64,000 nt of DNA from Octopus vulgaris (GCA_951406725.2 OX597814.1:46376001-46440000), one strand, 5' to 3'. Positions 4,867 through 64,000 are shown, numbered from the stretch's first letter. Numbers and translations are program-made. Notes: a model not told the origin generated them from the sequence alone.

Positions 4867-5266
4867 TTACTCTTTTACTTGTTTCAGTCGTATGACTGCG
4901 ACCATGCTGGAGCACTGCCTTTAGTCAAGCAAATCGACCCCAGGACTTATTCTTTGTAAGCCTAGTACTTATTCTATCGGTCTCTTTTGCCAAACTGCTA
5001 GGTTACAGGGACGTAAACACACCAGCATCAGTTGTCAATGTTGGGGGAACAAACACAGACACACAAACACACACACACACACACATATATATACATATAC
5101 GTATATATGATGGGCTTCTTTCAGTTTCCGTCTACCAAATCCACTCACAAGGCTTTGGTTGGCCCGAGGCTATAGTAGAAGACACTTGCCCAAGGTGCCA
5201 TGCAGTGGGACTGAACCCAAAACCATGTGGTTGGTAAGCAAGCTACTTACCACACAGCCACTCCTG
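4867..5266 (-). mobile_element. tRNA-derived CORE-type SINE (octopus OR-like)
   Basis: Minus-strand head with A box TGGCTGTGTGG, B box GGTTCAGTCCC and CORE-like CCTTGGGCAAGTG, internal (CA/TA)n, tail GAAACAAGTAAAAGAGT. Homologous to copies at 22274, 38139 and 63635. Confidence 0.88.
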
Positions 5267-15789: not shown

Positions 15790-17363
15790 TAGTCCTCCAG
15801 GCAATAACGGAGGAATTCAAGACAGGGTGCCCCTGGGAGCTCCTGTATGCTGATGACCTTGCTCTAATTGCTGAGTCACTATCATAACTGGAGAAGTTTC
15901 AGGTGTGGAAGCAAGGATTAGAATCGAAGGGCCTTAAAGTCAACCTAGCTAAAACCAAAGTCCTAATAAGTAGGAAGGTAGACAAGTCACAAACGCCTTC
16001 AGGTAGATGGCCTTGCTCGATCTGTAGGAAAGGCGTAGGTAGAAACTCTATAAGATGCACCAAGTGTAAGCTATGGACATATAAGAGGTGCAGCAACGTC
16101 AAGGGAAGGCTAACTAGGAAGATAGTTTTTGTATGTGGCAGATGCTCAGGAGCAATAAACACTGAAAATGCACAGAGAGCAACTTCCGCCACATTCCAGG
16201 GAGAAAAGCTTCCGTTACCTAGGTGACCAAGTCAGTAGTGGGGGCTGATGTGTTGAAAGTGTAACTGCTAGAGTAAGAATAGCTTGGGCAAAGTTCAGAG
16301 AGCTCTTACCTCTGCTAGGGACAAAAGGCCTCTCGCTCAGAGTAAAAGGCAGACTGTATGATGCATGTGTACGAACAGCCATGCTACATGGCAGTGAAAC
16401 ATGGGCCGTGACTGCTGAGGATATGCGTAAGCTCGCAAGAAATAAAGCCAGTATGCTCCGATGGATGTGTAATGTCAGTGTTCATACTCGACATAGTGTA
16501 AGTACCTTGAGAGAGATGTTGGACCTAAGAAGCATCAGTTGCGGTGTGCAAGAGAGATGTTTGCGCTGGTATGGCTATGTGGCGAGAATGGATGAAGATA
16601 GTTGTGTGCAAAAGTGCCACACCCTAGCTGTTGAGGGAACCTATGGAAGAGGCAGACACAGGAAAACCTGGGATGAGGTGTTGAAGCACGACCTTTGAAC
16701 TTTAGGTCTCACAGCGGAAATGACTAGAGACCGAGACCTTTGGAAGTATGCTGTGCGTGAGAAGACCTGGCAGGACAAGTGAGACCATGCCTCAGTCCAC
16801 TTATGCATACCTTTCCTTCTTGGGACACAAAACTGTACTTGTGAAGACCTGTTGAGGCAAGTGAAAATCAAAATCAAAATCAAAATCAAAAATCAAAATT
16901 GATCAACATGAATGGAAATTGTAGCTGTAATACCAGTGCCGGTGGCACATAAGAGAACCATCCGAACGTGGCTGTTGCCAGCGCCGCCCCGACTGGCTTC
17001 CATGCTGGTGGCACGCAAAAAGCACCATCCGATCATGGCTGTTGCCAGCCTCGCCTGGCCTCCGTGCAAGTGGTACGTAAAAAGCACCATCCGATCGTGG
17101 CCATTTTGCCAGCCTCGCCTGGCCTCGGTGCCAGTGGCACGTAAAAAGCACCATCCGATCGTGGCCGTTTGCCAGCCTCGTCTGGCACCTGTGCCAGTGG
17201 CACATAAAAAGCACCCACTACACTCATGGAGTGGTTGGCATTAGGAAGGGCATCCAGCCATAGAAACATTGCCAGATCAGACTGGGCCTGGTGCAGCCTT
17301 CTGGCTTCCCAGACCCCAGTTGCACCGTCCAACCCATGCCAGCATGGAAAGCGGACGCTAAAC

Positions 17364-17394
<31 letters not shown>
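15790..17394 (+). mobile_element. 5'-truncated RTE (BovB-like) LINE
   Basis: CPWELLYADD, GLKVNLAKTK, Cys-rich WPCSICRKGVGRNSIRCTKC, MLHGSETW, LRWYGYVARM, RGRHRKTW. 3' UTR with ~50-bp tandem units (GTGGCACGTAAAAAGCACCATCCGATCGTGGCC) and a (GAT)n tail. Confidence 0.93.
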
Positions 17395-22273: not shown

Positions 22274-22680
22274 GGTGCAGGAATGACTGTGGTATGAAGC
22301 TTGCTTCCCAACCACATGGTTCTGGGTCCAGTCTCACAGCATGGCATCTTGGGCAAGTGTCTTCTACTATAGCTTTGGGCCGACCAAAACCTTGTGAGTG
22401 GATTTGGTAGACTGAAACTGAAAGACACCCATTATATATATATATGTGTGTGTGTGTATATATATGTATGTGTCTGTATTTGTCCCTCCCACCATCACTT
22501 GACAACCAATGTTGATGTGCTTACATCCCCATCATTTAGTGGCTTGGCAAAAGAGACTGATAGAATAAGTACTAGGCTTACAAAGAATAAGTCCTGAGGT
22601 CGATTTGTTTGACTAAAGGTGGTGCTCCAGCATGGAGGTAGTTAAATGACTGAAACAAGTAAAAGAATAAAAAAAGAATA
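22274..22680 (+). mobile_element. tRNA-CORE SINE (CpG-decayed copy)
   Basis: Colinear with the SINE at 38139-38470. Confidence 0.85.
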
Positions 22681-38138: not shown

Positions 38139-38470
38139 GCGCAGGAGTAGTTTAGCTTGCTAACCAACCACATGGTTCCGGGTTCAGTCCTACAGCGTTC
38201 CGCTTTGGGCGAGTGTCTTCTGTTATAGCCCCGGGCCGACCAAAGCATTGTAAGTGGATTTGATAGATGGAAACTGAAAGAAGCCCGTCATACATATATA
38301 TATGTTTGTGTGTGTCTGTGTTAATGTCCCCGTAACTTAGCGGTTCAGCAAAAGAGACCGATCGAATAAGTACTAGGCTTCCAAAGAATAAGTCTTGAGG
38401 TCGATTTGCTCGACTAAAGGCGGTGCTCCAGCATGGCCACAGTCAAATGACTGAAACAAGTAAAAGAGTA
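38139..38470 (+). mobile_element. tRNA-CORE SINE
   Basis: Head preceded by (TA)n, B box GGTTCAGTCC, tail GGCGGTGCTCCAGCATGGCCACAGTCAAATGACTGAAACAAGTAAAAGAGT. Confidence 0.88.
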
Positions 38471-38777
38471 AAAAAAAAAAGAATATAAAACATTTATTTA
38501 TATTCATATATTTATTCATATGAATATAAACACACACACATACATAATAGCTGTCCAATAAATTTTCATGAGTCGAAGCTTCAGTCTTGTCCAATGATAC
38601 AATGATTGTTGATTTACCTCTCTGCAGTTGGATTATTTTTTCTAAACATGAAATCATTCGGTAACATGAATTGGCTGTATTTAGACAAAGTTTATATTGC
38701 ATAAATAATAATCCATAATGTGTGTGTGTGGTATTTATATATACACATATGATAAATCTCTCTCTCTCTCTCTCTCT

Positions 38778-38922
38778 GGCTTCCGTGCCGGTGGCACGTA
38801 AAATGCACCAATCCGACCGTGGCCGTTGCCAGCCTCGCCTGGCACCTGTGCAGGTGGCATGTAAAAAGCACCCACTACACTCACGGAGTGGTTGGCATTA
38901 GGAAGGGCATCCAGCTGTAGAA
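38778..38922 (+). mobile_element. RTE 3' UTR fragment
   Basis: GTGGCACGTAAAATGCACC unit and GAGTGGTTGGCATTAGGAAGGGCATCC. Confidence 0.75.
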
Positions 38923-39165: not shown

Positions 39166-39203
39166 GTATATGTATACATATATATACATACATCATCATC
39201 ATC

Positions 39204-39255
<52 letters not shown>

Positions 39256-39314
39256 GTATATATATATATGTATATATATATATGTATATATATATATATG
39301 TATATATATATATG

Positions 39315-39375
<61 letters not shown>

Positions 39376-39424
39376 GTATATATATATATGTATATATATA
39401 TATGTATATATATATATATGTATA

Positions 39425-39491
<67 letters not shown>

Positions 39492-39561
39492 GTATATATA
39501 TGTATATATATATATGTATATATATATATGTATATATATATATGTATATATATATATATGT

Positions 39562-39855
<294 letters not shown>

Positions 39856-39875
39856 GTATATATATATTGTATATA

Positions 39876-40210
<335 letters not shown>

Positions 40211-40211
40211 G

Positions 40212-40260
<49 letters not shown>

Positions 40261-40271
40261 GTATATATATG

Positions 40272-40425
<154 letters not shown>

Positions 40426-40454
40426 GTTATATGTGTATATATGTATATATGTGT

Positions 40455-40489
<35 letters not shown>

Positions 40490-40556
40490 ATATATATATA
40501 TATGTATATATGTATATGTATATATGTATATATATGTATATATATATGTATATATG

Positions 40557-40625
<69 letters not shown>

Positions 40626-40667
40626 GTGTATATATATATGTATATGTATATATATATATATGTATAT

Positions 40668-40715
<48 letters not shown>

Positions 40716-40730
40716 GTATATGTATATATG

Positions 40731-40912
<182 letters not shown>

Positions 40913-40915
40913 GTA

Positions 40916-41126
<211 letters not shown>

Positions 41127-41127
41127 G

Positions 41128-41324
<197 letters not shown>

Positions 41325-41333
41325 GTATATATG

Positions 41334-41382
<49 letters not shown>

Positions 41383-41387
41383 GTGTA

Positions 41388-41494
<107 letters not shown>

Positions 41495-41519
41495 GTATAT
41501 GTATATATATATATATGTG

Positions 41520-41574
<55 letters not shown>

Positions 41575-41600
41575 GTATATATATATGTATATATATATAT

Positions 41601-41796
<196 letters not shown>

Positions 41797-41797
41797 G

Positions 41798-41830
<33 letters not shown>

Positions 41831-41841
41831 GTATATATATG

Positions 41842-41906
<65 letters not shown>

Positions 41907-41935
41907 GTATATATATATATATATGTATATATATG

Positions 41936-41995
<60 letters not shown>

Positions 41996-42004
41996 ATATA
42001 TATG

Positions 42005-42036
<32 letters not shown>

Positions 42037-42060
42037 TGTATATATAATATATATGTATAT

Positions 42061-42092
<32 letters not shown>

Positions 42093-42104
42093 GTATATGT
42101 ATAT

Positions 42105-42138
<34 letters not shown>

Positions 42139-42226
42139 GTGTGTATATATATATGTATATGTATATATGTATATATATATATATATATGTGTATATATAT
42201 ATATGTATATGTATATATATATATAT

Positions 42227-42283
42227 GATTGATTGATTCCAGTTCCAGCCTATGAGCTGTGGCCATGCTGGGGCACCGCCATC
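42227..42283 (-). mobile_element. 57-bp extreme 3' end of the (TA)n-associated LINE/SINE family
   Basis: Reverse complement GGCGGTGCCCCAGCATGGCCACAGCTCATAGGCTGGAAC plus (AATC)n, with (TA)n on both sides. Confidence 0.75.
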
Positions 42284-42426
42284 TATGTATATATATATAT
42301 ATGTGTATATATATGTGTATATGTATATGTATATATATATATATGTATATATATGTGTATATGTATATGTATATATATATGTATATATATATATATATGT
42401 ATATGTATATATATATATGTATATAT

Positions 42427-42458
<32 letters not shown>

Positions 42459-42477
42459 GTATATGTATATAGATATA

Positions 42478-42570
<93 letters not shown>

Positions 42571-42578
42571 GTATATAT

Positions 42579-42612
<34 letters not shown>

Positions 42613-43071
42613 ATGTATATGTATATATATGTGTATATATATATATGTATATGTATATATGTATATGTATATATATATGTATATATATATGTATATGTAT
42701 ATGTATATATATATGTATATATATATGTATATGTATATGTATATATATATATATGTATATGTATATATATATGTATATATATATATGTATATGTATATAT
42801 ATATATATGTATATGTATATATATATGTATATGTATATATATATGTATATATATATATGTATATGTATATATAAGGAAAACTTTATGAAAATAAACAAAA
42901 GACGAAGGCAGGTGGAAAACAAACGAACAATTGTATTAGTATGGCGCTCAGGAAATATAAATAAAACAAATGTATATATATATATATGTATATGTATATA
43001 TATATATATGTATATATATATGTATATGTGTATATATATATGTATATATATATATATGTATATGTGTATAT

Positions 43072-43149
<78 letters not shown>

Positions 43150-43150
43150 G

Positions 43151-43266
<116 letters not shown>

Positions 43267-43551
43267 ATGAAATCTCTGAACGAGATATAAACAGTAACCG
43301 CTCGACAACGTAAAAGTATACTAGCCATCTCAATATGGCTAACCACTAAGGGTGGGTGTTACTGTAGCTTTTAGCCCCAGGAGATCATTGTCTCCAGCTG
43401 GCTTTAGGCACAATTTCTGTGCCCTTATGGTATTTGCAAAGGGAGGTTTACAAGAGAGGGATGTATATATATATATATATATATCCATATATATATAGTA
43501 GTTCATATATATATATATATATGTATATATATATGTGTATATATATATGTA

Positions 43552-43804
43552 TCGTGCCAGTGGCACGTAAATTGCACACAATCCGACCGTGGCCATTGCC
43601 AGCCTTGCCTGGCACCTGTGCGGGTGGGACATAAAAAGCACCCACTACACTCAAGGAGTGGTTGGCGTTAGGAAGAGCATCCAGCTGTAGAAGCATTGCC
43701 AGATAAGACTGGAGCCTGGTGCAGCCTTCTGGCTTCCCAGATCCCCGGTCGAGCCGTTCAACCCATGCTAGCATGGAGAACGGACGTTAAACGATGATGA
43801 TGAT

Positions 43805-43805
<1 letters not shown>
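43552..43805 (+). mobile_element. RTE 3' end within (TA)n
   Basis: Tandem unit, GAGTGGTTGGCGTTAGGAAG and (GAT)n tail. Confidence 0.85.
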
Positions 43806-43902
<97 letters not shown>

Positions 43903-43917
43903 GTATATATATATATG

Positions 43918-44020
<103 letters not shown>

Positions 44021-44033
44021 GTATATATATATG

Positions 44034-44308
<275 letters not shown>

Positions 44309-44347
44309 GTATATATATGTATATATATATGTATATATATGTATATA

Positions 44348-44402
<55 letters not shown>

Positions 44403-44535
44403 GTATATATGTATATATATGTATATATATATGTATATATATGTATATATATGTATATATATGTATATATATATATATATGTATATATATATGTATATAT
44501 ATATGTATATATATATGTATATATATGTATATATG

Positions 44536-44578
<43 letters not shown>

Positions 44579-44669
44579 GTATATATATATATATGTATAT
44601 ATATGTATATATATATGTATATATATATATGTATATATATATGTATATATATATATGTATATATATATG

Positions 44670-44750
<81 letters not shown>

Positions 44751-44763
44751 GTATATATATATG

Positions 44764-44794
<31 letters not shown>

Positions 44795-44799
44795 GTATA

Positions 44800-44872
<73 letters not shown>

Positions 44873-44893
44873 GTGTATATATATAGGTATATA

Positions 44894-45076
<183 letters not shown>

Positions 45077-45089
45077 GTATATATATATG

Positions 45090-45358
<269 letters not shown>

Positions 45359-45403
45359 GTATATATATGTATATATATATATATATATATGTATATGTAT
45401 ATA

Positions 45404-45446
<43 letters not shown>

Positions 45447-45557
45447 GTATATGTATATATATATATATGTATATATATATGTATATATATATATATGTAT
45501 ATATATATGTATATATATATATATGTATATATATATGTATATATATATATATGTATA

Positions 45558-45652
<95 letters not shown>

Positions 45653-45759
45653 GTATATATATATATATGTATATATATGTATATATATATATATATATGT
45701 ATATATATGTATATATATGTATATATATGTATATATATATGTATATATATATGTATATA

Positions 45760-45844
<85 letters not shown>

Positions 45845-45911
45845 GTATATGTATATATATATGTATATATATATGTATATATATATGTATATGTATATAT
45901 GTATATATATG

Positions 45912-45946
<35 letters not shown>

Positions 45947-45957
45947 GTATATATATG

Positions 45958-46016
<59 letters not shown>

Positions 46017-46029
46017 ATGTATATATATG

Positions 46030-46078
<49 letters not shown>

Positions 46079-46146
46079 GTATATATATGTATATATATAT
46101 ATATGTATATATATATGTATATATGTATATGTATATATATATGTAT

Positions 46147-46192
<46 letters not shown>

Positions 46193-46241
46193 GTATATGT
46201 ATATATATATGTATATGTATATATATATGTATATGTATATA

Positions 46242-46374
<133 letters not shown>

Positions 46375-46403
46375 GTATATATATATATGTGTATATATAT
46401 ATG

Positions 46404-46476
<73 letters not shown>

Positions 46477-46505
46477 GTATATATATATATGTATATATAT
46501 ATATG

Positions 46506-46728
<223 letters not shown>

Positions 46729-46731
46729 GTG

Positions 46732-46882
<151 letters not shown>

Positions 46883-46947
46883 GTATATATATATATATAT
46901 ATACATATATATATACATATATACATATATGTATGTACATATATATG

Positions 46948-47004
<57 letters not shown>

Positions 47005-47009
47005 GTATG

Positions 47010-47078
<69 letters not shown>

Positions 47079-47080
47079 AC

Positions 47081-47130
<50 letters not shown>

Positions 47131-47177
47131 GTATGTATATATGTATACATATATACATATATACATATATATATATG

Positions 47178-47224
<47 letters not shown>

Positions 47225-47292
47225 GTATATATGTATATATATATGTATATATGTATATATATATGTATATGTATACATATATACATATATAT

Positions 47293-47816
<524 letters not shown>

Positions 47817-47867
47817 TCTATATATATATGTATATATATATTATATATATATATATATATGTATACT

Positions 47868-51239
<3,372 letters not shown>

Positions 51240-51247
51240 TATATATG

Positions 51248-51278
<31 letters not shown>

Positions 51279-51385
51279 TGATATAACGGTAAGATAACAA
51301 AAGATATATATATACCTATATATATATATATAAATATATATATATATAATACATATATATATATAATATATATATATATATATAC

Positions 51386-51552
<167 letters not shown>

Positions 51553-51564
51553 TATATATGGACG

Positions 51565-51622
<58 letters not shown>

Positions 51623-51661
51623 CAAACCCGTATATATATGTATATATATATAAATATATAT

Positions 51662-54600
51662 ATGGTTTTTCTTTTAATATCCTCAAACAACCAAATAATC
51701 AAAAACTCACACCCTTAAGAGAGAACATTTATATATATATACACTTCTTTAACTCCCAAGAAAGAATATATATATTTTCAAAAATCAAAAGGAAAACAAA
51801 CAAAAGAAAAACAAACATGACTAACTTGCAGGCCTGCAACAGACGAAATTGGTCTGATAACGAAATTGATGTTTTAATAAACACATGGCTCTCTCTTTCC
51901 CAAACAGAAAATCTAAATGTCTTGTGTTTGAATGAGATTGCCGAAAAAACATCACAAGTGGTCAACACACGATCCGTCAAACAGATTCGTAGCAAGTTGA
52001 AACATATCAAGTATCTTTCAAACTGATAAGAGGCCATTATGAAAAGCTTCTACATATTTTCACAGTTCAAGAACAACAACAGCTAGAAAAATCAGCAGCC
52101 ACAACAACAACAACAACAGAATGAGCCACTCCTGGTTCCCAACACAATGGCTGACCCTGACATCGGTCAGTCACAACAACAACAACAACAACAGCCACAG
52201 CAACAAGAACAACAACAGCCACTCCTCAACTCTAGCTTACTAGACGATTCACTAAATGCCAGTATCTTTTCACCGCTCTCACAGCAACCACCACAATTAT
52301 CATCATCATCATCACCACCGCTGCCACCATCGTCTTATATCACCAAAAATACCAACAGAAAACCAAATAAGAAACCACTGCCCCTTCCCCCACATCACCC
52401 CCTCAATACTACTGCAGTAACAAAAACTTAAAGAAACATAGGAAGCAGAATGCGCCCCACGGCACAAACAAGAAATCCCCAAATATGCCGCTATTCACTG
52501 CGCCAGAGACTCTGCACAAATAGTGACTGCATCTTCACGCATCTGGCCCGGCACTAGACGCACTACTGGCCAAGGCCAAAGCACGCATCCCACAATAACA
52601 TCAACACCACCAAATAGTAAATCGAAATTCAAAACACACACAACTCGGAGTCCCAAAATCTGCCGGTATTCCCAACGTGAGAGAACATGTCTACTGAGTG
52701 ACTGTCCCTTCACTCATCTTCCAGGGACCCGACGCACAAACAGAAACGGGGCCTCAAGCCAACACACAAACCTGAATAACAATAAAAATAGAAACACACC
52801 ATGCTGCAGTAATGCTGGTCCAGTCTTTTCAGGAAGACACAAAACAACAACAACAAAAGTGGAAACTACAACCCTATCCAACAGTGCAACCACACCTCCA
52901 GCCAAAAACTGCTCCCTAAGCAGGAAAATTCTTTTTTTTTAGCCATGTTGAACATGGCAAAAGAGATACACAAAAACATTCTAGCCATCACTCAACACCA
53001 TCCTATGCTATTACCCCAGTGCACCAATTCCCCACATTGCTGCCACTAACACACACAAAAAAATCCAAGCCCCCTGCAACAGTCAAAACCAGCCACTACA
53101 CTAACCTCCACATTCCTACTCAATGCACAAGGTGTCAGCCCCCTTCCATCAATGCACAAAAATGGAAGGTCCAATTCATTGAAGACTGGGTTGGTAACCA
53201 TTCACACCACATCCCTTTCTTCATTCTCACTGAGACCCACCTTGACAACTCCCACTTGGAAGCCGAAGTGAGAGTGAAGAATTTCACAACCATCCGCGCG
53301 GATCGTATCGGCAGGAGGAAGGGTGGAACTGCCATTTTCCTGCATGATTCATTTACGGCAGATGGAAATAGTATATTCTCCAACGGCTACTGTGAATCAG
53401 TCACCGTGCACAACAAAGCCAATGATCTGACAGTAATTGGGCTCTATAGGCCGCCCCAAACACCCATACTGTGCTTTAAAGAATGCCTCAACAGCATTAA
53501 GTGCTTTATTCAACAGTGCCATTCTAGCAACATACTCATGATGGGAGACTTCAATCTACCCTGTGTTGACTGGACTACAAACTGTTTGAAACCAAGCACT
53601 CCCCGCCTCAACCGCTGACAAAGAAGCAGCAGAGTCACTTTTCGACTTTACGAATGAGTTTTTCTTGTCCCAACTTGTCCTTGCACCAACAAGACATCAG
53701 AACATTTTGGACCTAGTGTTTAGTAACCACACTAACACTATACATAACGTTACAGTGGAAAAAACCCTTCTTTCAGACCATGACATGGTTCTCTGTAACA
53801 TGAAATTCCACCAGCCGAAAGCTAATCCTAGTGACCTTCCTCCAGCCCACCCATTTGACAACATGGATCTCCATAAAGCCAACTGGGATGCAATCAGGAA
53901 CGAGCTATCAAATGTTGACTGGTCCTTTACATACACACATCTCCACCAACCATAAAACATCTTGGCAGATCTTTGTAGACACCGTCACAGACATATGTGC
54001 AAAACACTCCCCACCAAGACCTGTGAACAAAAAGTGCAGAATCCCCCAAAACAGAAAAACCATTATCAGAAAAATAAAAAGAACAAACAAAAAAATTAAC
54101 AAACTAAAGTACTGCCAACAGCAACACACACATTCGACGGCTATCGCACTGCTTGAATCCAAAAATATAACCTCCAACAATGCATGAAGTCCCTCATCAA
54201 TAACCAAAGATCAGCTGAGGAGAAGTGGGCCATTGAAAAAATCAAACTCAACCCCAAAGTGTTCTTTTCATTTGCGAGGAAACGCAGGGTCACTGTCTCC
54301 ACTGTAGGCCCTCTAATTGACGAAACTGGCACTCTCCAAGATAATGCCAAATCCATGGCCGAGATACTGCAGAAACAATACTGCAGCAATCTGATATGGC
54401 CGATCTGGGCTTATCAGCTATATCTGTTTAGTGCCCCTGAGTCTTAGCGGCGAAAAACGAAATAAAACTCACTGGCCCCGATAGGTTCCCTGGCTGATAT
54501 TGCCTCCCCTTGCTAATCTGTGGAGAAACTCACTGGATGCTGGCTATATTCCCAGTCTGTTGTCCCAGTTTTCAAAAAGGGAAACAAGTCCCTTGCAGTG

Positions 54601-56064
54601 AATTACCGTCCGATCTCACTTACCTCTCATATCATCAAGGTATTTGAGAGGGTGGTGAGATCTCGAATAACCCAATTCCTGGAAAGCAACAGACGGCTGA
54701 TCTCCAACCAACATGGGTTCCGTAATGGAAGGGACTGCCTAACGCAGCTCCTGCATCACTTTGAGGACATTTTGAGAGCTTTGGGAGAGGGCTCCATCAC
54801 CGATGTCATCTACCTTGATTTCAGTAAGGCCTTCGACAGGGTCGATCACAAGATCCTATTGAAAAAACTATCCAACATTGGTGTCTCTGGAAAGTTACTG
54901 AAATGGATTAAGTGTTTCCTGACAGACAGATCTCAACATGTTGTAGTTGAAGGGGTAAAATCAAGCCCAGCCAAAGTCAGTAGTGGCGTTCCGCAAGGCA
55001 CTGTGCTGGGCACACTTCTTTTCCTCATTTACATTAATGACATTAATGACATCATCAAGCACAGCAACATAAAAATCTTTGCAGATGACTCCAAGCTACA
55101 GAAGGTCATAAATGAGGCGAGTGACCGGACATGCCTTCAGTAAGATCTACTGGCTGTTATCCAATGGGCAGAAAAAAACAATATGCTGCTGAACGAGGAT
55201 AAATTTGAGCTAATCCACTTTGGAAAAGAGGATGCCCTGAAACTCCCATACTCCCTTCCTTCAGGTGAAACTCTCGCGGCGTCCAACAACATCAGAGACT
55301 TGGGAGTAATTGTGGACAACAACGTAAGCTGGGCCACTCATATAAACACCAAAGTTGACATGGCCCGCAGAATGTGTTCCTGGATTCTCAGAACTTTCCA
55401 GTCGAGAGATATCCACACCATTATCCTTCTCTTCTCCACTTTTGCCCGACCCCACCTTGAATACTGTTGTCCACTGTGGTCTCCCCACACAATACAAGGT
55501 ATCATAAAAGTTGAAGCACCTCAAAGGGCAATCACAAAAAAGATAGATGGCATGACAGGCCTCGACTATTGGGGTCGGCTAGAAAAGCTAAAACTCTATT
55601 CTCTCCAACGTCGTCGTGAGCGCTACACCATCTGCATGATGTGGAAAATATTCCATCAGCATTGCCCAAATGATGTTGGCATCACCTTTAAGGTACATCC
55701 AAGGCTTGGGCCCCGAGCCATCCGCCCAAAACAAAAATCGCACTCTCATCTCATAACAACAATACGGCACAATTATTTCACCTCAATTGGCCCCGCTCTC
55801 TTTAACATTACACCAAAACACATTAAAACAGAAACTGACCCTATAGGGTTCAAGAAGTCTTTGGACAGATTCCTTCAAGATTTCCCGGATAAACCCCCTA
55901 CACCCGGATATGTCTCTGTAAACAATAACTCTCTACTTGAGTGGGCCATAGTGCCCAAATTCTGACTTGAAAGACTTCACCAGGTGGTGCTATTAAGTTA
56001 GACATGGCCTGGGCCAATAATGGCCGAAACCTATCAAAGTATCAAAGTATCAAAGTATCAAAGT
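51662..56064 (+). mobile_element. near full-length CR1/L2-group LINE (copy C): ORF1 with Myb/SANT-like domain and 2 CCCH fingers; ORF2 APE-RT; frameshifted
   Basis: ORF1 from ATG 51817. APE motifs LTETHL, GLYRPP, MGDFNLP, NILDLVFSN, LSDH (53130-53800). RT NYRPISLTSH, QHGFR, LDFSKAFD, GVPQG, FADD (54550-55140). C-terminus YSLQRRRERY to 55965. (TATCAAAG)4 tail; (TA)n on both sides. Confidence 0.92.
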
Positions 56065-56276
56065 ATACATATACATATATATATACATATATATACACAT
56101 ACATATATATACATATACATATATATACATACATATATATATACATACATATATATATACATACATATATATATACATACATATATATATATATACATAT
56201 ATATATACATACATATATATATATACATACATATATATATACATACATATATATATATATACATATATATATATAC

Positions 56277-56310
<34 letters not shown>

Positions 56311-56410
56311 NNNNNNNNNNNNNNNNNNNNNNNNNNNNNNNNNNNNNNNNNNNNNNNNNNNNNNNNNNNNNNNNNNNNNNNNNNNNNNNNNNNNNNNNNN
56401 NNNNNNNNNN
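56311..56410. other. assembly gap (100 N)
   Basis: Run of N. Confidence 1.
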
Positions 56411-56459
56411 TATATGTATATGTATATGTATATATATATGTATATGTATATATATACGT

Positions 56460-56935
56460 AGATATCAGAAAGCAGAACCAAAATCGAAGCCGATCAACAT
56501 CAATGGAAATTGCAGCTGTGATACCTGTGCCGGTGACAAGTAAGCGAACCATCCGATCGTGGCCTTTGCCAGCGCTGCCCCGACTGGCCTCTGTGCTGGT
56601 GGCACGTAAAAAGCACCATCCGTTCATGGCCGTTGCCAGCTTCGCCTGGCCTCCGTGCCGGTGGCACATAAAAAGCACCATCCGTTCGTGGTCGTTGGCA
56701 GCCTCGCCTGGCCCCTGTGCCGGTGGCACGTAAAAAGCACCATCCGTCCCTGGCCGTCTGGCACCTAAAAAGCACCCACTACAGTTTCGGAGTGGTTGGC
56801 ATTAGGAAGGGCATCCAGCCGTAGAAACACTGCCAGATCAGACTGGGCCTGAAGCAGCCTTCTGGCTTCACAGACCCCAGTTGAACTGTCCAACCAATGC
56901 TAGCATGGAAAGCGGACGTTAAATGATGATGATGA
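56460..56935 (+). mobile_element. RTE 3' UTR with tandem units, CpG-intact
   Basis: Colinear with 16895-17394; (GAT)n tail. Confidence 0.88.
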
Positions 56936-57254
56936 TATATATACATGTATATATATATATATATATACATGTAGACCTACCATAAAGGGCTAATATTGGT
57001 AAAATGAGACATATCTACATGGCCGAAACAGCTGTAAGATGTAATCTATACTTATATTTATATTCTCTTTTATATATATTCTACTTATTATACAACATTA
57101 CTTTTTATGTACATTCCTTGATGTACACTGATTTGTTTTGCTTTTTATATGTAACCCTACAGTCTCTATGTGGTGGTTTAATAAAGTATGTGATTGAGTA
57201 TTATCTGGTAATTGATATTTAATTTAGATGTATTTCTCCATTTTCTTATCTTGT

Positions 57255-57258
57255 ATAC

Positions 57259-57324
<66 letters not shown>

Positions 57325-57633
57325 ATATACATGTATATATATATACATGTATATATATATTAATATATATATATATATGTATATATACATGTATATATAT
57401 ATATACATGTATATATATATACATGTATATATATATACATGTATATATATATACATGTATATATACATGTATATATATATATGTATATATACATGTATGT
57501 ATATATACATGTATATATACATGTATGTATATATTATATACATGTATATATATATATATATATACATGTATGTATATATATATATATATATATACATGTA
57601 TATATACATATATACACACACACACATGTATGT

Positions 57634-57665
<32 letters not shown>

Positions 57666-57790
57666 ATATATATATACATGTATATATATATATACATGTA
57701 TATATATATACATACATATATATATATATACATGTATATATATATATATACATGTATATATATATACACACATATATATATATATACATG

Positions 57791-57824
<34 letters not shown>

Positions 57825-57839
57825 CATGTATATATATAT

Positions 57840-57877
<38 letters not shown>

Positions 57878-58154
57878 ATATATATACATGTATATATACA
57901 TGTATATATATATATACATGTATATATATACATGTATATATACATGTATATATATATACATGTATATATATATATATGTATATATACATGTATGTATATA
58001 TATATATATGTATATATATATATGTATGTATATATACATGTATATACATGTATATATATATATATACATGTATATATATATATATACATGTATATATATA
58101 TATATATACATGTATATATATATATATACATGTATATATATATATATATACATG

Positions 58155-58192
<38 letters not shown>

Positions 58193-58268
58193 CATGTATA
58201 TATATATATATACATGTATATATATATATATATACATGTATATATATATATATACATGTATATATATA
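57255..58268. repeat. (TA)n array with recurrent palindromic TACATGTA units
   Basis: Direct reading. Confidence 0.9.
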
Positions 58269-58534
58269 TTTATATATAAAAAAGGAAATGAAGAAAATGC
58301 TGACAAATAATTGAAGTAATTTAAGTAATTTAATTAGGTGAAAGTTCTTTTTACCGGTTGCGCATTTGTTATGCTTATCAAAATATATATGTATATATAT
58401 ACATATATATAATACCTGTACATCATCTCCAAACCCAATCTATCTATCTATCCATCTATCTATATTTATATATGTACGAATATATTATGTGCCGGTGGCA
58501 CGTAAAAAGTCCAGTGTAATCCAATTTTACCCTG

Positions 58535-59400
58535 GTGTTTGAGTGCCCGAAATTCTTGTAGCATTGAACTACATGTTATTTTTGTTAGCCCAATTGTAGA
58601 TGTCGTTCAGGTCTTTCTACAGTTATATGATGTTCTTTGGGTCCCTAACTGCCTTCGATACTTTTGTGTCATCAGCATAACAGTTTAGATTGGCTGACTG
58701 TACTGTGGAGGGCATGTCTGAGAGGGCCACCACAAATAGTAGTGGCCCCAAGTACAGTTCATTGTGGGACTCCGCTGAGAATTTGTGTCTCTACAACAGT
58801 CTGACTCCTGCCCTTCAGAAAATCATGCAGCCACTCCAAGTTCCCAGTAATACCAAGGTTTCGTAGCTTGTGATATATTATGCCATGATCAACCTTGTTG
58901 AATGCCTTGGCAAAATCAAGGGATATCATGTCTACAGCTGACTGGTTTAGCTGTTGCTTCAGAACCCAGTCAAAGTGTTGCAGCAACTATGTAAGGCAGC
59001 TCCCCCCTGGGCGGAAGCCATGTTGCATGTTTGTGAGAAAGTTGTTTTCTTCTAGAAACGTGATCAGCCTTTTTCTGACAGTGTGTTCCATCATCTTGCT
59101 AAATGTGAGGTCAGAGAGACGGGCCTGTAGTTTTTAGCATCTGCTCTGCTCCCTCCTTTATGGACAGGGCATATTATACCCTGTTGTAGCATGTTGGGAA
59201 GTTTATCACATGTAAGGAAACTCTGAAAGAGTATCTGCAGTGGCTTTGCAAGAGCCTTTTTCCATGTCTTTAAGAGAGCAGCTGGGACATCTGCATCTGC
59301 CCCATGCAGGTCTCTCAGGTCCTTCGGGAGGATATTGAAGAGCTGTGGACCTCTGAAGCCTAGGCTATCACAGTATCTTGTCCTACATCTTGATGGCAGA
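58535..59400 (-). mobile_element. rearranged CR1/L2-group LINE fragments (copies D/E)
   Basis: KALAKPLQILF...[22 protein letters not shown] and YADD (58535-59283), joined to a C-terminal piece [19 protein letters not shown] (59284-59400). Confidence 0.85.
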
Positions 59401-59519
59401 AGAAAACTAATATATATATATGTATATATATATATATGTGTATATATATATGTGTGTGTGTGTGTATATATATTTATGTATATATATGAATATATATATA
59501 TGTGTGTGTGTGTGTATGT

Positions 59520-60993
59520 ATAATATGCCCTATCCATACGGGAGGAAAAAGGGCAGAGGCTAGGCATTATAGACCTGTCTCCCTGACCTCCCACATCAGT
59601 AAAGTCATGGAGCACATTATCAGGAAAAGACTCATTGAATTCCATGAGGACAATGACCTGCTCTCTTACACCCAACATGGCTTCGCCTGGGAAGGAGCTG
59701 TCTTACACAGCTTCTGCAACACTATGACTGGGTACTGAGGCAATTAATAAACTGCTCAAAGGTGGATGTGGTATACCTCGACTTTGCGAATGCATTTGAC
59801 AAAGTCGACCATGGAATGATATGCCACAAAATACGGGAACTCGGCATCACTGGTAAAATCAGTGAGTGGCTGCATGATTTGCTAAAGGACAGGAGCCAAA
59901 CTGTAGCAGCCAACGGAGCTCTCTCCACAGAGACACCAATAGTGAGTGGAGTGCCCCAGGGCACTGTGCTGGGGCCACTGCTTTTCATGGTAGCCCTATT
60001 GGATATGCCATCAGTGACAGAGGCAGCTATGCCGACGACACAAAAGTTGCACAGTCAGTCAAAGAAGCCTCTGATGCTACGCTCTTACAAAAAGATGTAG
60101 ATGCCATCTATACATGGGCTGAGGATAACAACATGCAATTTAATGCAAGTAAATTCTAAGCCCTCTGCTACCAGTTAAACACTGCTCAGGAATCATGACA
60201 TCAGTACGTTGGACGAAGTGGAGCAACGATCCCAGAATCAAATACAGTGCATGATCTTGTAATAGAAATGAGCAACAATGCCTCATTTCACACGCGTATC
60301 AACAAAATGGTAGCAGTATCCAGAAGACAGGCTGGTTGGATTCTGAGAACCTTCTGGACAAGGGACCAAGAAACTATGATAACACTATGGAAGTCATTTA
60401 TCCTCAGCCGACTGGACTACTGCTCTCAGCTATGGTCACCTTATACTACAAGGACGATAGCTGAGCTTGAAGCAGTCCAACGACATTACGCAAAGAAAAT
60501 TGCATCACTGGAATGATTGAGCTACGGGACAGGTTGAAAGAGCTGCGACCCTATTCCCTGGAACGAAGGTGGGAGAGGTATGCAGTGATATATATATATG
60601 GAAGATACTGGAAGGACTGGTACCAAACTTTGGAATAAAGAGCTATACTAGACCACTGTGCTGTCCCCCTTGTGCCGACTGCTTCATCTCGGGCAAGGAC
60701 AATGTAGGGCAGTAACTTGGGTTTCAAGGGCCCACAGCTATTTGACTGTCTGCCGAAGCATCTGAGGAGCCTACATGGAGTGGATTTAGATGTTTTCAAA
60801 CGTGAACTTGACCTCTGGCTCTCCGAGATGTCTGATAACCCAATATCTAGGCGAGAAACTCAAAAGAGGGCAGTAACATCAAACTCCATCCTTCACCAAA
60901 AGCCGCTCCGACAAAGGTAGAAAGCGGAAAGATGATCACAACAGCGGTGCTTGAGCATGGCCACTGTCATAGGACTAAAACATATAAAAGAAT
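59520..60993 (+). mobile_element. CR1/L2-group LINE, 5'-truncated, with 3' end (copy F)
   Basis: [41 protein letters not shown]; stop 60920; 3' UTR GCGGTGCTTGAGCATGGCCACTGTCATAGGACTAAAAC. Confidence 0.9.
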
Positions 60994-61011
60994 ACATACA
61001 TATGTAACTCT

Positions 61012-61121
<110 letters not shown>

Positions 61122-63637: not shown

Positions 63638-64000
63638 TCTTTTTACTCTTTACTCTTTTACTTGTTTCAGTAATTTGACTGCGGCCATGCTGGAGCACCG
63701 CCTTTAGTCGACCAATTCGACCCCAGGACTTATTCTATCGGTCTCTTTTGCCGAACCGCTAAGTGACGGGGACGTAAACACACCAGCATCGGTTGTCAAG
63801 CGATGTTGGGGGGACAAACACAGACACACACACATATATATATATATATACATATATACGACAGGCTTCTTTCAGTTTCCGTCTACCAAATCCACTCACA
63901 AGGCATTGGTCGGCCCGGGGCTATAGTAGAAGACACTTGCCCAAGATGCCACGCAATGGGACTGAACCCGGAACCATGTGGTTGGTTAGCAAGCTACTTA
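63635..64000 (-). mobile_element. tRNA-CORE SINE, young CpG-intact copy, tail joined to (TA)n
   Basis: Colinear with 4867-5266; (TACTCTTT)n tail directly abuts (TA)n; runs off the window end. Confidence 0.9.

Follow-up and report, generated by a model that had tools for sequence, protein, structure and literature searches.

We describe a long interspersed element (LINE) on the plus strand of a 64,000-nt stretch of Octopus vulgaris DNA (GCA_951406725.2 OX597814.1:46376001-46440000; hereafter the window, from whose first letter all positions are counted), where it lies between (TA)n arrays (Table 1). What is novel in this element is a Myb/SANT-like segment at the start of its first open reading frame (ORF1), in the place where related LINEs have a PHD-like motif, and not its CCCH zinc fingers. 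Taken as a whole, we moderately favor a reading of the element as a young CR1-group LINE with a single Myb–linker–2×CCCH ORF1 and an AUG-less ORF2 that would be made by −1 frameshifting, as a fusion of ORF1 with the apurinic/apyrimidinic endonuclease (APE) and the reverse transcriptase (RT).

The element is likely a near-full-length, young CR1-group LINE. An endonuclease domain (Exo_endo_phos, E 1.3e-5; Pfam) lies upstream of a reverse transcriptase domain (RVT_1, E 2e-25), a simple-repeat tail forms the 3′ end, and a family of 5′-truncated copies is evident from summed read depth, which increases roughly tenfold in the 3′ direction. The original prediction, made from the sequence alone, had placed an APE, an RT, and TA arrays on both flanks here, and Pfam and Tandem Repeats Finder (TRF) recover them all. 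No target-site duplication is readable because both flanks are TA arrays, and the 5′ boundary was placed by eye, such that the element may start further upstream. The CR1-group label is a provisional one, drawn from C-terminal motifs; against it, the trees contained unnamed rows only, with no named references, and did not settle the sister group of the element. An Rfam scan of 47900–61100 found nothing.

ORF1: Myb/SANT-like Segment, CCCH Fingers, and Relatives

The segment that opens at ATG 51817 matches Pfam Myb_DNA-bind_4 (PF13837) at E=9.8e-6 (26.3 bits, profile positions 1–63 of 89), which bears out its original reading as Myb/SANT-like, though just below the cut-off. It shows the W-S-x2-E-x2-L-x3-W, EIA, and RS-x2-Q pattern of Myb_DNA-bind_4 proteins. 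Pfam was run on 12 pieces, and Myb families turned up in the two that contain the segment but in none of the remaining 10. A phmmer search of 1.84 billion proteins gave three matches at E up to 0.001. Two of these (P0018 and P0019) were dropped as repeat artifacts, and the remaining one, P0020, is a protein with six Myb_DNA-bind_4 repeats, one of which is 33% identical to the segment over 70 columns. A profile of the P0020 repeats gives the segment 21.5–25 bits, compared to 10.4 for the best of 2,000 shuffles—a test that is partly circular because P0020 was found with the same query. The single-sequence model of the segment has three helices (14–30, 35–46, and 52–62; pLDDT 61). Myb_DNA-bind_4 domains belong to animal trihelix-type proteins and are associated with Harbinger-derived proteins; the copy in this element differs in being single, shortened, sub-threshold, and housed within a LINE ORF1.

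Several results weigh against this assignment. The Pfam score is under the gathering cut-off of 27 and was obtained on a piece that a frame break truncates, and the Myb profile cannot separate the continuation frames (24.0, 25.0, and 23.2 bits). Fold searches with the low-confidence model returned no Myb among their matches (best Z 6.5) and were uninformative. Among further searches, one of Protein Data Bank sequences gave one match only, at E 4.3; a word search with the Myb piece found nothing among 13 candidates (longer proteins only, hence weak evidence); and the best atlas match, at 0.85, is an unnamed protein that serves as a lead only. No other protein joining Myb to CCCH was found by the word searches of longer proteins or by phmmer across the 1.84 billion.

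As read in the window, the Myb frame ends at a stop at 52024–52029, and further stops and shifts of frame lie between the linker, finger 1, and finger 2; the case for a single ORF1 is therefore built on contigs from public sequencing runs. Twenty of the 24 listed runs, from eight studies, contain 70–74% of the element's words, and four were aligned to it (X1, X15, and X18, which represent three studies, and the DNA run X16). Eleven indels recur in X1, X15, and X18 (12 of 39 indel rows listed): 52008 (+1), 52383 (+1), 52454 (+2), 52545/6 (−1), 52840 (+1), 52932 (−3), 53057 (−1), 53139 (−2), 53601 (−1), 53928 (+2), and 54440 (+1). With these applied, ORF1 is stop-free from the Myb via both fingers to the TAA at 53047—outside the Q-rich repeat, which was skipped in the contig comparison—and comes, by arithmetic, to 409 codons. 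Independent contigs tie the Myb segment physically to the element, as originally predicted: specifically, X15 record 9 joins Myb and finger 1, covering 51706–52086 and 52227–52566 with 136 letters in place of the window's 140 over 52087–52226. Over 52619–53988, X15 record 10 differs from the window by 10 gap letters, each of them part of a listed indel, and has no substitutions. Indels are thus many and substitutions few, a pattern that suggests assembly error, and 8 of the 11 indels sit in homopolymer or dinucleotide runs (by eye); we infer that the frame breaks of the window are mostly assembly errors, with real slippage possible.

The Myb part of the element is clearly repeated. Summed depth in X16, which is not a copy number, is 31,350, 69,623, and 22,458 in three 5′ bins (2–7e4 over the Myb), 1–3.5e5 mid-element, and 7–8e5 at the 3′ end, with single long contigs at 27–75; a climb toward the 3′ end is the pattern of a 5′-truncated family.

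ORF1 likely encodes one protein with a Myb/SANT-like domain, a Q/P/S linker, two CCCH fingers, and a C-terminal helix. The Myb-like segment could instead be a captured, decaying fragment or a short 5′ upstream ORF outside the finger-bearing protein, as its stop in the window, its sub-threshold score, the lack of a close homolog in the searches, and a depth under that of the body of the element might suggest. We consider this very doubtful, as the segment starts at the first long ATG frame of the element and occupies the place of the relatives' PHD-like motif, and as an identical +1 indel in three studies opens its frame and the net linker length restores that of the fingers. Weighing against a one-protein ORF1, in addition to the lower depth over the Myb than mid-element, are a continuity across the Q-rich stretch that was judged by length, from one contig only, and the fact that none of the listed contigs covers the whole element.

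Both fingers of the original prediction are upheld, with C-x(6-10)-C-x(4-5)-C-x3-H spacing in each; when the region was shuffled, even one C-x8-C-x4-C-x3-H pattern arose in 1 of 1,000 shuffles. A word search with the finger-2 piece found nothing among 210 candidates (again longer proteins only and weak evidence). Judging from their family, we infer that the fingers would bind RNA.

An APE search yielded 17 proteins and six metagenome loci (L001–L006); L001–L005 are grouped with ORF2 proteins P0001–P0015 as unnamed LINEs. Three CCCH fingers occur in four of the six loci, and three loci have a PHD-like motif at the position of the Myb. Specifically, L002, L003, and L005 combine C4HC3 (PHD-like) spacing with three fingers in ORF1, and L004, whose start is cut off, has three fingers and passes three CCCH cut-offs (Pfam). 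L001 shows the end of ORF1 only, and L006, which is distant (31%, without upstream DNA), was excluded from the ORF1 counts. None of the four relatives' ORF1s scanned gave a Myb match. The members of this group resemble the element in APE (34–44% identical), in the RT-C-terminal region (44–59%), in the equal spacing of the last finger, and in a −1 overlap with a slippery heptamer, whereas they differ in carrying a PHD-like motif instead of the Myb and three distinct fingers where the element has a single one in duplicate. In alignment, the fingers of the window correspond to the relatives' last finger.

The CCCH fingers appear to be ancestral to this LINE group, and the Myb likely replaced a PHD-like motif in the lineage of the element, a swap seen only here. 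Against the swap, the PHD call is one of Cys/His spacing, with a best Pfam E of 0.69. The claim of a poorly described ORF1 architecture survives in that Myb and CCCH are both absent from ORF1 surveys in their available text; it fails for the CCCH fingers as a peculiarity of the element, because relatives carry three. The best atlas match to the L002 ORF1 (0.79) is a lead only. Searches beyond these loci confirmed 0 of 490 stretches in viral contigs as relatives and 1 of 61 in prokaryote genomes (L007, a short, weak match that was not used). One of the proteins, P0016, is a single-chain PHD–APE–RT element with a DLHPNPGP motif in residues ~105–170, which we take to resemble a 2A-like peptide.

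The ORF1–ORF2 Junction

In the window, small indels, a shortfall of 91 nt, and a stop (55141–55143) interrupt ORF2; contigs are 91 letters longer within 53989–54642, consistent with the ORF2 frame, and all four aligned runs differ from the window at 55142, within that stop. Without any correction of the window, the −1 frame extends from its opening at 52920 as far as 53618, and the first ATG on the ORF2 path, at 53538, falls deep inside APE (in L001–L003, the first Met falls behind the first APE strand). Near the start of the open −1 overlap, an in-frame slippery heptamer is found in the window and in all five relatives that hold the junction. The relatives' overlaps span 148–298 nt, and the heptamer sits 0–48 nt into the overlap in L001–L005 and the window (G_GAU_UUU in L001–L003 and L005; U_UUU_UUA in L004 and L005). 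With no AUG before the endonuclease, a −1 overlap with ORF1, and a heptamer at the overlap start, we hold it reasonably probable that ORF2 is made by −1 frameshifting, and the product would likely be a Myb–CCCH–APE–RT fusion. U_UUU_UUA is the frameshift site of HIV-1. G_GAU_UUU is given as a known viral shift site in the available text of PMC5009743.

In favor of frameshifting, under synonymous recoding a stop-free −1 frame arises by chance with a probability of 0.04–0.19 in L001–L003, 0.05 in L004, 0.008 in L005, and 0.30 in the window. Several points count against frameshifting: a heptamer anywhere in the overlap is expected by chance with P 0.13–0.37 per locus, and L001–L003 are one lineage and L004 and L005 sisters, so that the loci amount to three or four independent cases. 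Downstream structure is not conserved, none being significant in three relatives (z −0.1, −0.8, and +1.1), and the window's own hairpin, with a z of −4.16 when 46 nt are folded and of only −1.18 with 106 nt, follows the heptamer without a spacer. The stimulatory structure of −1 frameshift sites lies 5–9 nt downstream. Finally, L004 and L005 have an in-frame Met ahead of APE, and AUG starts are therefore possible there.

The structures and the Met ahead of APE could also be read as favoring an ORF1 as described here with an ORF2 that is translated by re-initiation or from a non-AUG start, the DFL/SFL/PFL motif under the heptamer being kept for its amino acids. Near-cognate codons are available ahead of APE (GTG 53019, TTG 53037, and CTG 53040 or 53074), and mammalian LINE ORF2 is described as a case of unusual initiation (PMC5009743, available text). 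On the contrary, in six loci the −1 frame is open from the heptamer across 35–81 codons of ORF1, an open stretch for which a start close to the stop of ORF1 would have no use, and the codons beneath the DFL/SFL/PFL motif make heptamers in six of six loci. We regard this alternative start as rather unlikely. If −1 frameshifting operates, most ribosomes would end at 53047 and a minority would slip at 52935–52941. Reviews, in the text available, mention no −1 frameshift that leads to ORF2 in an animal LINE (PMC5009743), and the junction described here is kept across distant lineages.

Table 1. Features of the element and its flanks (positions in the window; strand "." where none applies).
Feature	Position	Strand	Basis and remarks
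(TA)n array, 5′ flank, common to head-to-head LINE copy B	51025–51663	.	TRF period 2, 322 copies
Likely 5′ untranslated region (UTR)	51664–51816	+	Contigs from 51665 in X1 and X18, 0 other letters; X16 summed depth 31,350
ORF1 start, Myb/SANT-like (Myb_DNA-bind_4 type) domain	51817–52008	+	Pfam; P0020-repeat profile; frame break just after 52008
Q/P/S-rich low-complexity linker	52087–52383	+	Translation
CCCH finger 1, C-x8-C-x4-C-x3-H	52483–52542	+	Translation; Pfam zf-CCCH_2 E 0.0028, below cut-off; aligns with relatives' last finger
CCCH finger 2, internal duplicate of finger 1	52658–52717	+	61/88 nt same as finger 1 region
ORF2: AUG-less leader, APE (~53110–53800), RT (Pfam core ~54580–55089), C-terminal region	52920–55965	+	
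Predicted site of −1 frameshifting, with the slippery heptamer U_UUU_UUA in frame	52935–52941	+	
ORF1 C-terminal part and stop TAA (53047–53049), overlapping ORF2 in the −1 frame	52936–53049	+	
7-bp hairpin directly 3′ of heptamer	52942–52958	+	Centroid −9.8 kcal/mol
3′ UTR motif common to other LINE ends and SINE-like element of the window	55985–56031	+	Alignment
Tail (TATCAAAG)4.4, without poly-A	56032–56066	+	
Imperfect TA/TACA array, 3′ flank, including 100-N gap 56311–56410	56064–56460	.	

(TA)n Flanks and Neighboring Elements

LINEs in this window do lean toward TA, or so it looks: of the 10 LINE ends, which were placed by eye, 6 have a perfect (TA)6 run no more than 12 nt away, compared to 5.7% of random positions for a distance of up to 10 nt and 9.8% for up to 30 nt, although LINE ends share arrays and are therefore not independent. 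The leaning is not confined to the family of the element, because two distant copies abut TA as tightly. These, copy B (49674–51024, minus strand) and copy C (47976–48842, minus strand), are 5′-truncated and 68% identical to one another; they share 37% ORF2 identity with the element and abut (TA)n within 1–4 nt at four of four ends, their 5′-truncation points included. Copy B retains an open RT-to-end frame of >400 codons.

It is on this evidence that the original proposal, in which the Myb directs insertion to (TA)n, loses ground. In a fuller form of it, the Myb would bind (TA)n sequence-specifically and guide insertion, and the −1 frameshift would place Myb and endonuclease on one chain, the arrangement of R2 and TRAS. 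TA arrays at both flanks of the element fit this idea, as do a suggested role of the TRAS Pol Myb in telomere targeting (PMC5537684, available text) and the possibility, in the accounts available, that TRE5-A ORF1p chooses targets via TFIIIB. However, copies B and C, which may or may not have had a Myb of their own, abut (TA)n just as closely, perfect TA runs fill 13.7% of the window, and a single copy of the element's family is on view with its flanks, Myb–(TA)n binding being purely proposed. We consider the idea quite unlikely; Myb-guided (TA)n targeting is unsupported.

The mechanism that we propose runs otherwise. In this lineage, a Myb-like domain would have taken the place of a PHD-like motif, and a duplicated last finger that of the three fingers. 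The fingers would bind the element's own RNA, the Myb-like domain would tether the particle to DNA or chromatin (the presumed role of the PHD in relatives), and the (TA)n leaning would come mostly from ORF2 machinery common to other LINEs of the genome. It is improbable, in our estimation, that all of a bolder reading holds, with an undescribed animal LINE group that has CCCH ORF1s and a Gag-Pol-like −1 ORF2, and in which, after the PHD-to-Myb swap of this lineage, the frameshift joins the Myb to the endonuclease and so gives a Myb-guided, (TA)n-seeking integration enzyme by recoding and not by gene fusion.

Other repeats of the window were also recorded. Two older, broken LINE fragments (58530–59409, minus strand; 59529–60993, plus strand) flank a small TA/TG array in a back-to-back arrangement, and an 8.8-kb degenerate (TA)n array (39167–47937) has strand-biased G substitutions and short inserts, including a short interspersed element (SINE) at ~43553–43803. 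One SINE-like family (38139–38470, 4868–5245, 22298–22669, and 63651–63996) has a 3′ GGTGC..CATGGCC..GAAAC motif common to LINE ends; with a motif closest to that of copy B, it was likely mobilized by these LINEs. A second (16911–17374, 56500–56935, 38776–38922, and others) has 62–64-bp internal repeats and (GAT)n tails and is often TA-distant. Distances from SINEs to TA runs were dropped as too heavily confounded.

Comparison with Known Systems

Among CR1-group elements, five ORF1 types (I–V) have been defined, with RRM, CCHC, PHD, Tnp22, esterase, CC, and zf/lz in Table 1 of that study (Metcalfe and Casane, 2014; PMC4120745). The element shares with them an APE–RT ORF2 and a modular ORF1 in which PHD is often N-terminal and domains are swapped between lineages; it differs in that the types of that table lack both CCCH and Myb, and the terms CCCH, Myb, and SANT have no occurrences in the main text (PMC4120745). 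CCCH-type ORF1s, including the PHD-like plus 3×CCCH form of the relatives, are thus missing from such surveys as far as their available text goes. CR1-Zenon, likewise an invertebrate CR1-group element (molluscs, crustaceans, and hydra), is defined in the available text as lacking an ORF1 and ending in poly-A (PMC13343379); that label was ruled out, as our element has an ORF1 and a (TATCAAAG)n tail with no poly-A. The SINEs of the window may resemble those of octopus. For octopus, 13 CR1 families of recent activity are reported, which comprise 787 copies of near-full length, without ORF description in the text available (PMC13282606).

More broadly, within the literature outside Repbase, Dfam, and most subscription journals, the available texts describe neither a CCCH or Myb ORF1 nor a −1 shift to ORF2 in an animal LINE (PMC11203168, PMC10294476, PMC9115989, PMC5009743, PMC13343379, PMC5786205, PMC13282606, PMC4758252, PMC5203782, PMC5537684, PMC5633606, and PMC5006619), though supplements may contain such annotation. 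As to what the N-terminal ORF1 module does, the likely replacement of PHD by Myb amounts to a natural experiment.

Dictyostelium TRE5-A is, like the element, an APE-type LINE with overlapping ORFs, and its ORF1p is implicated in target choice; its targets are, on the contrary, tRNA genes reached via TFIIIB, and no Myb, CCCH, or frameshift is stated for it in the accounts available. R2 and TRAS are alike in having a Myb-type domain in a non-LTR element beside repeated targets. In R2, the Myb is part of the RT-bearing protein. The TRAS Myb is in the RT-bearing Pol (PMC5537684, available text), whereas that of our element is in ORF1 and would reach the RT only by frameshift. R2 and TRAS are site-specific, and the site specificity of this element is a proposal only—yet, if it is true that the fusion brings the Myb to the endonuclease, the element would offer a modular way of targeting insertion, which could interest those who use retrotransposons to insert genes.

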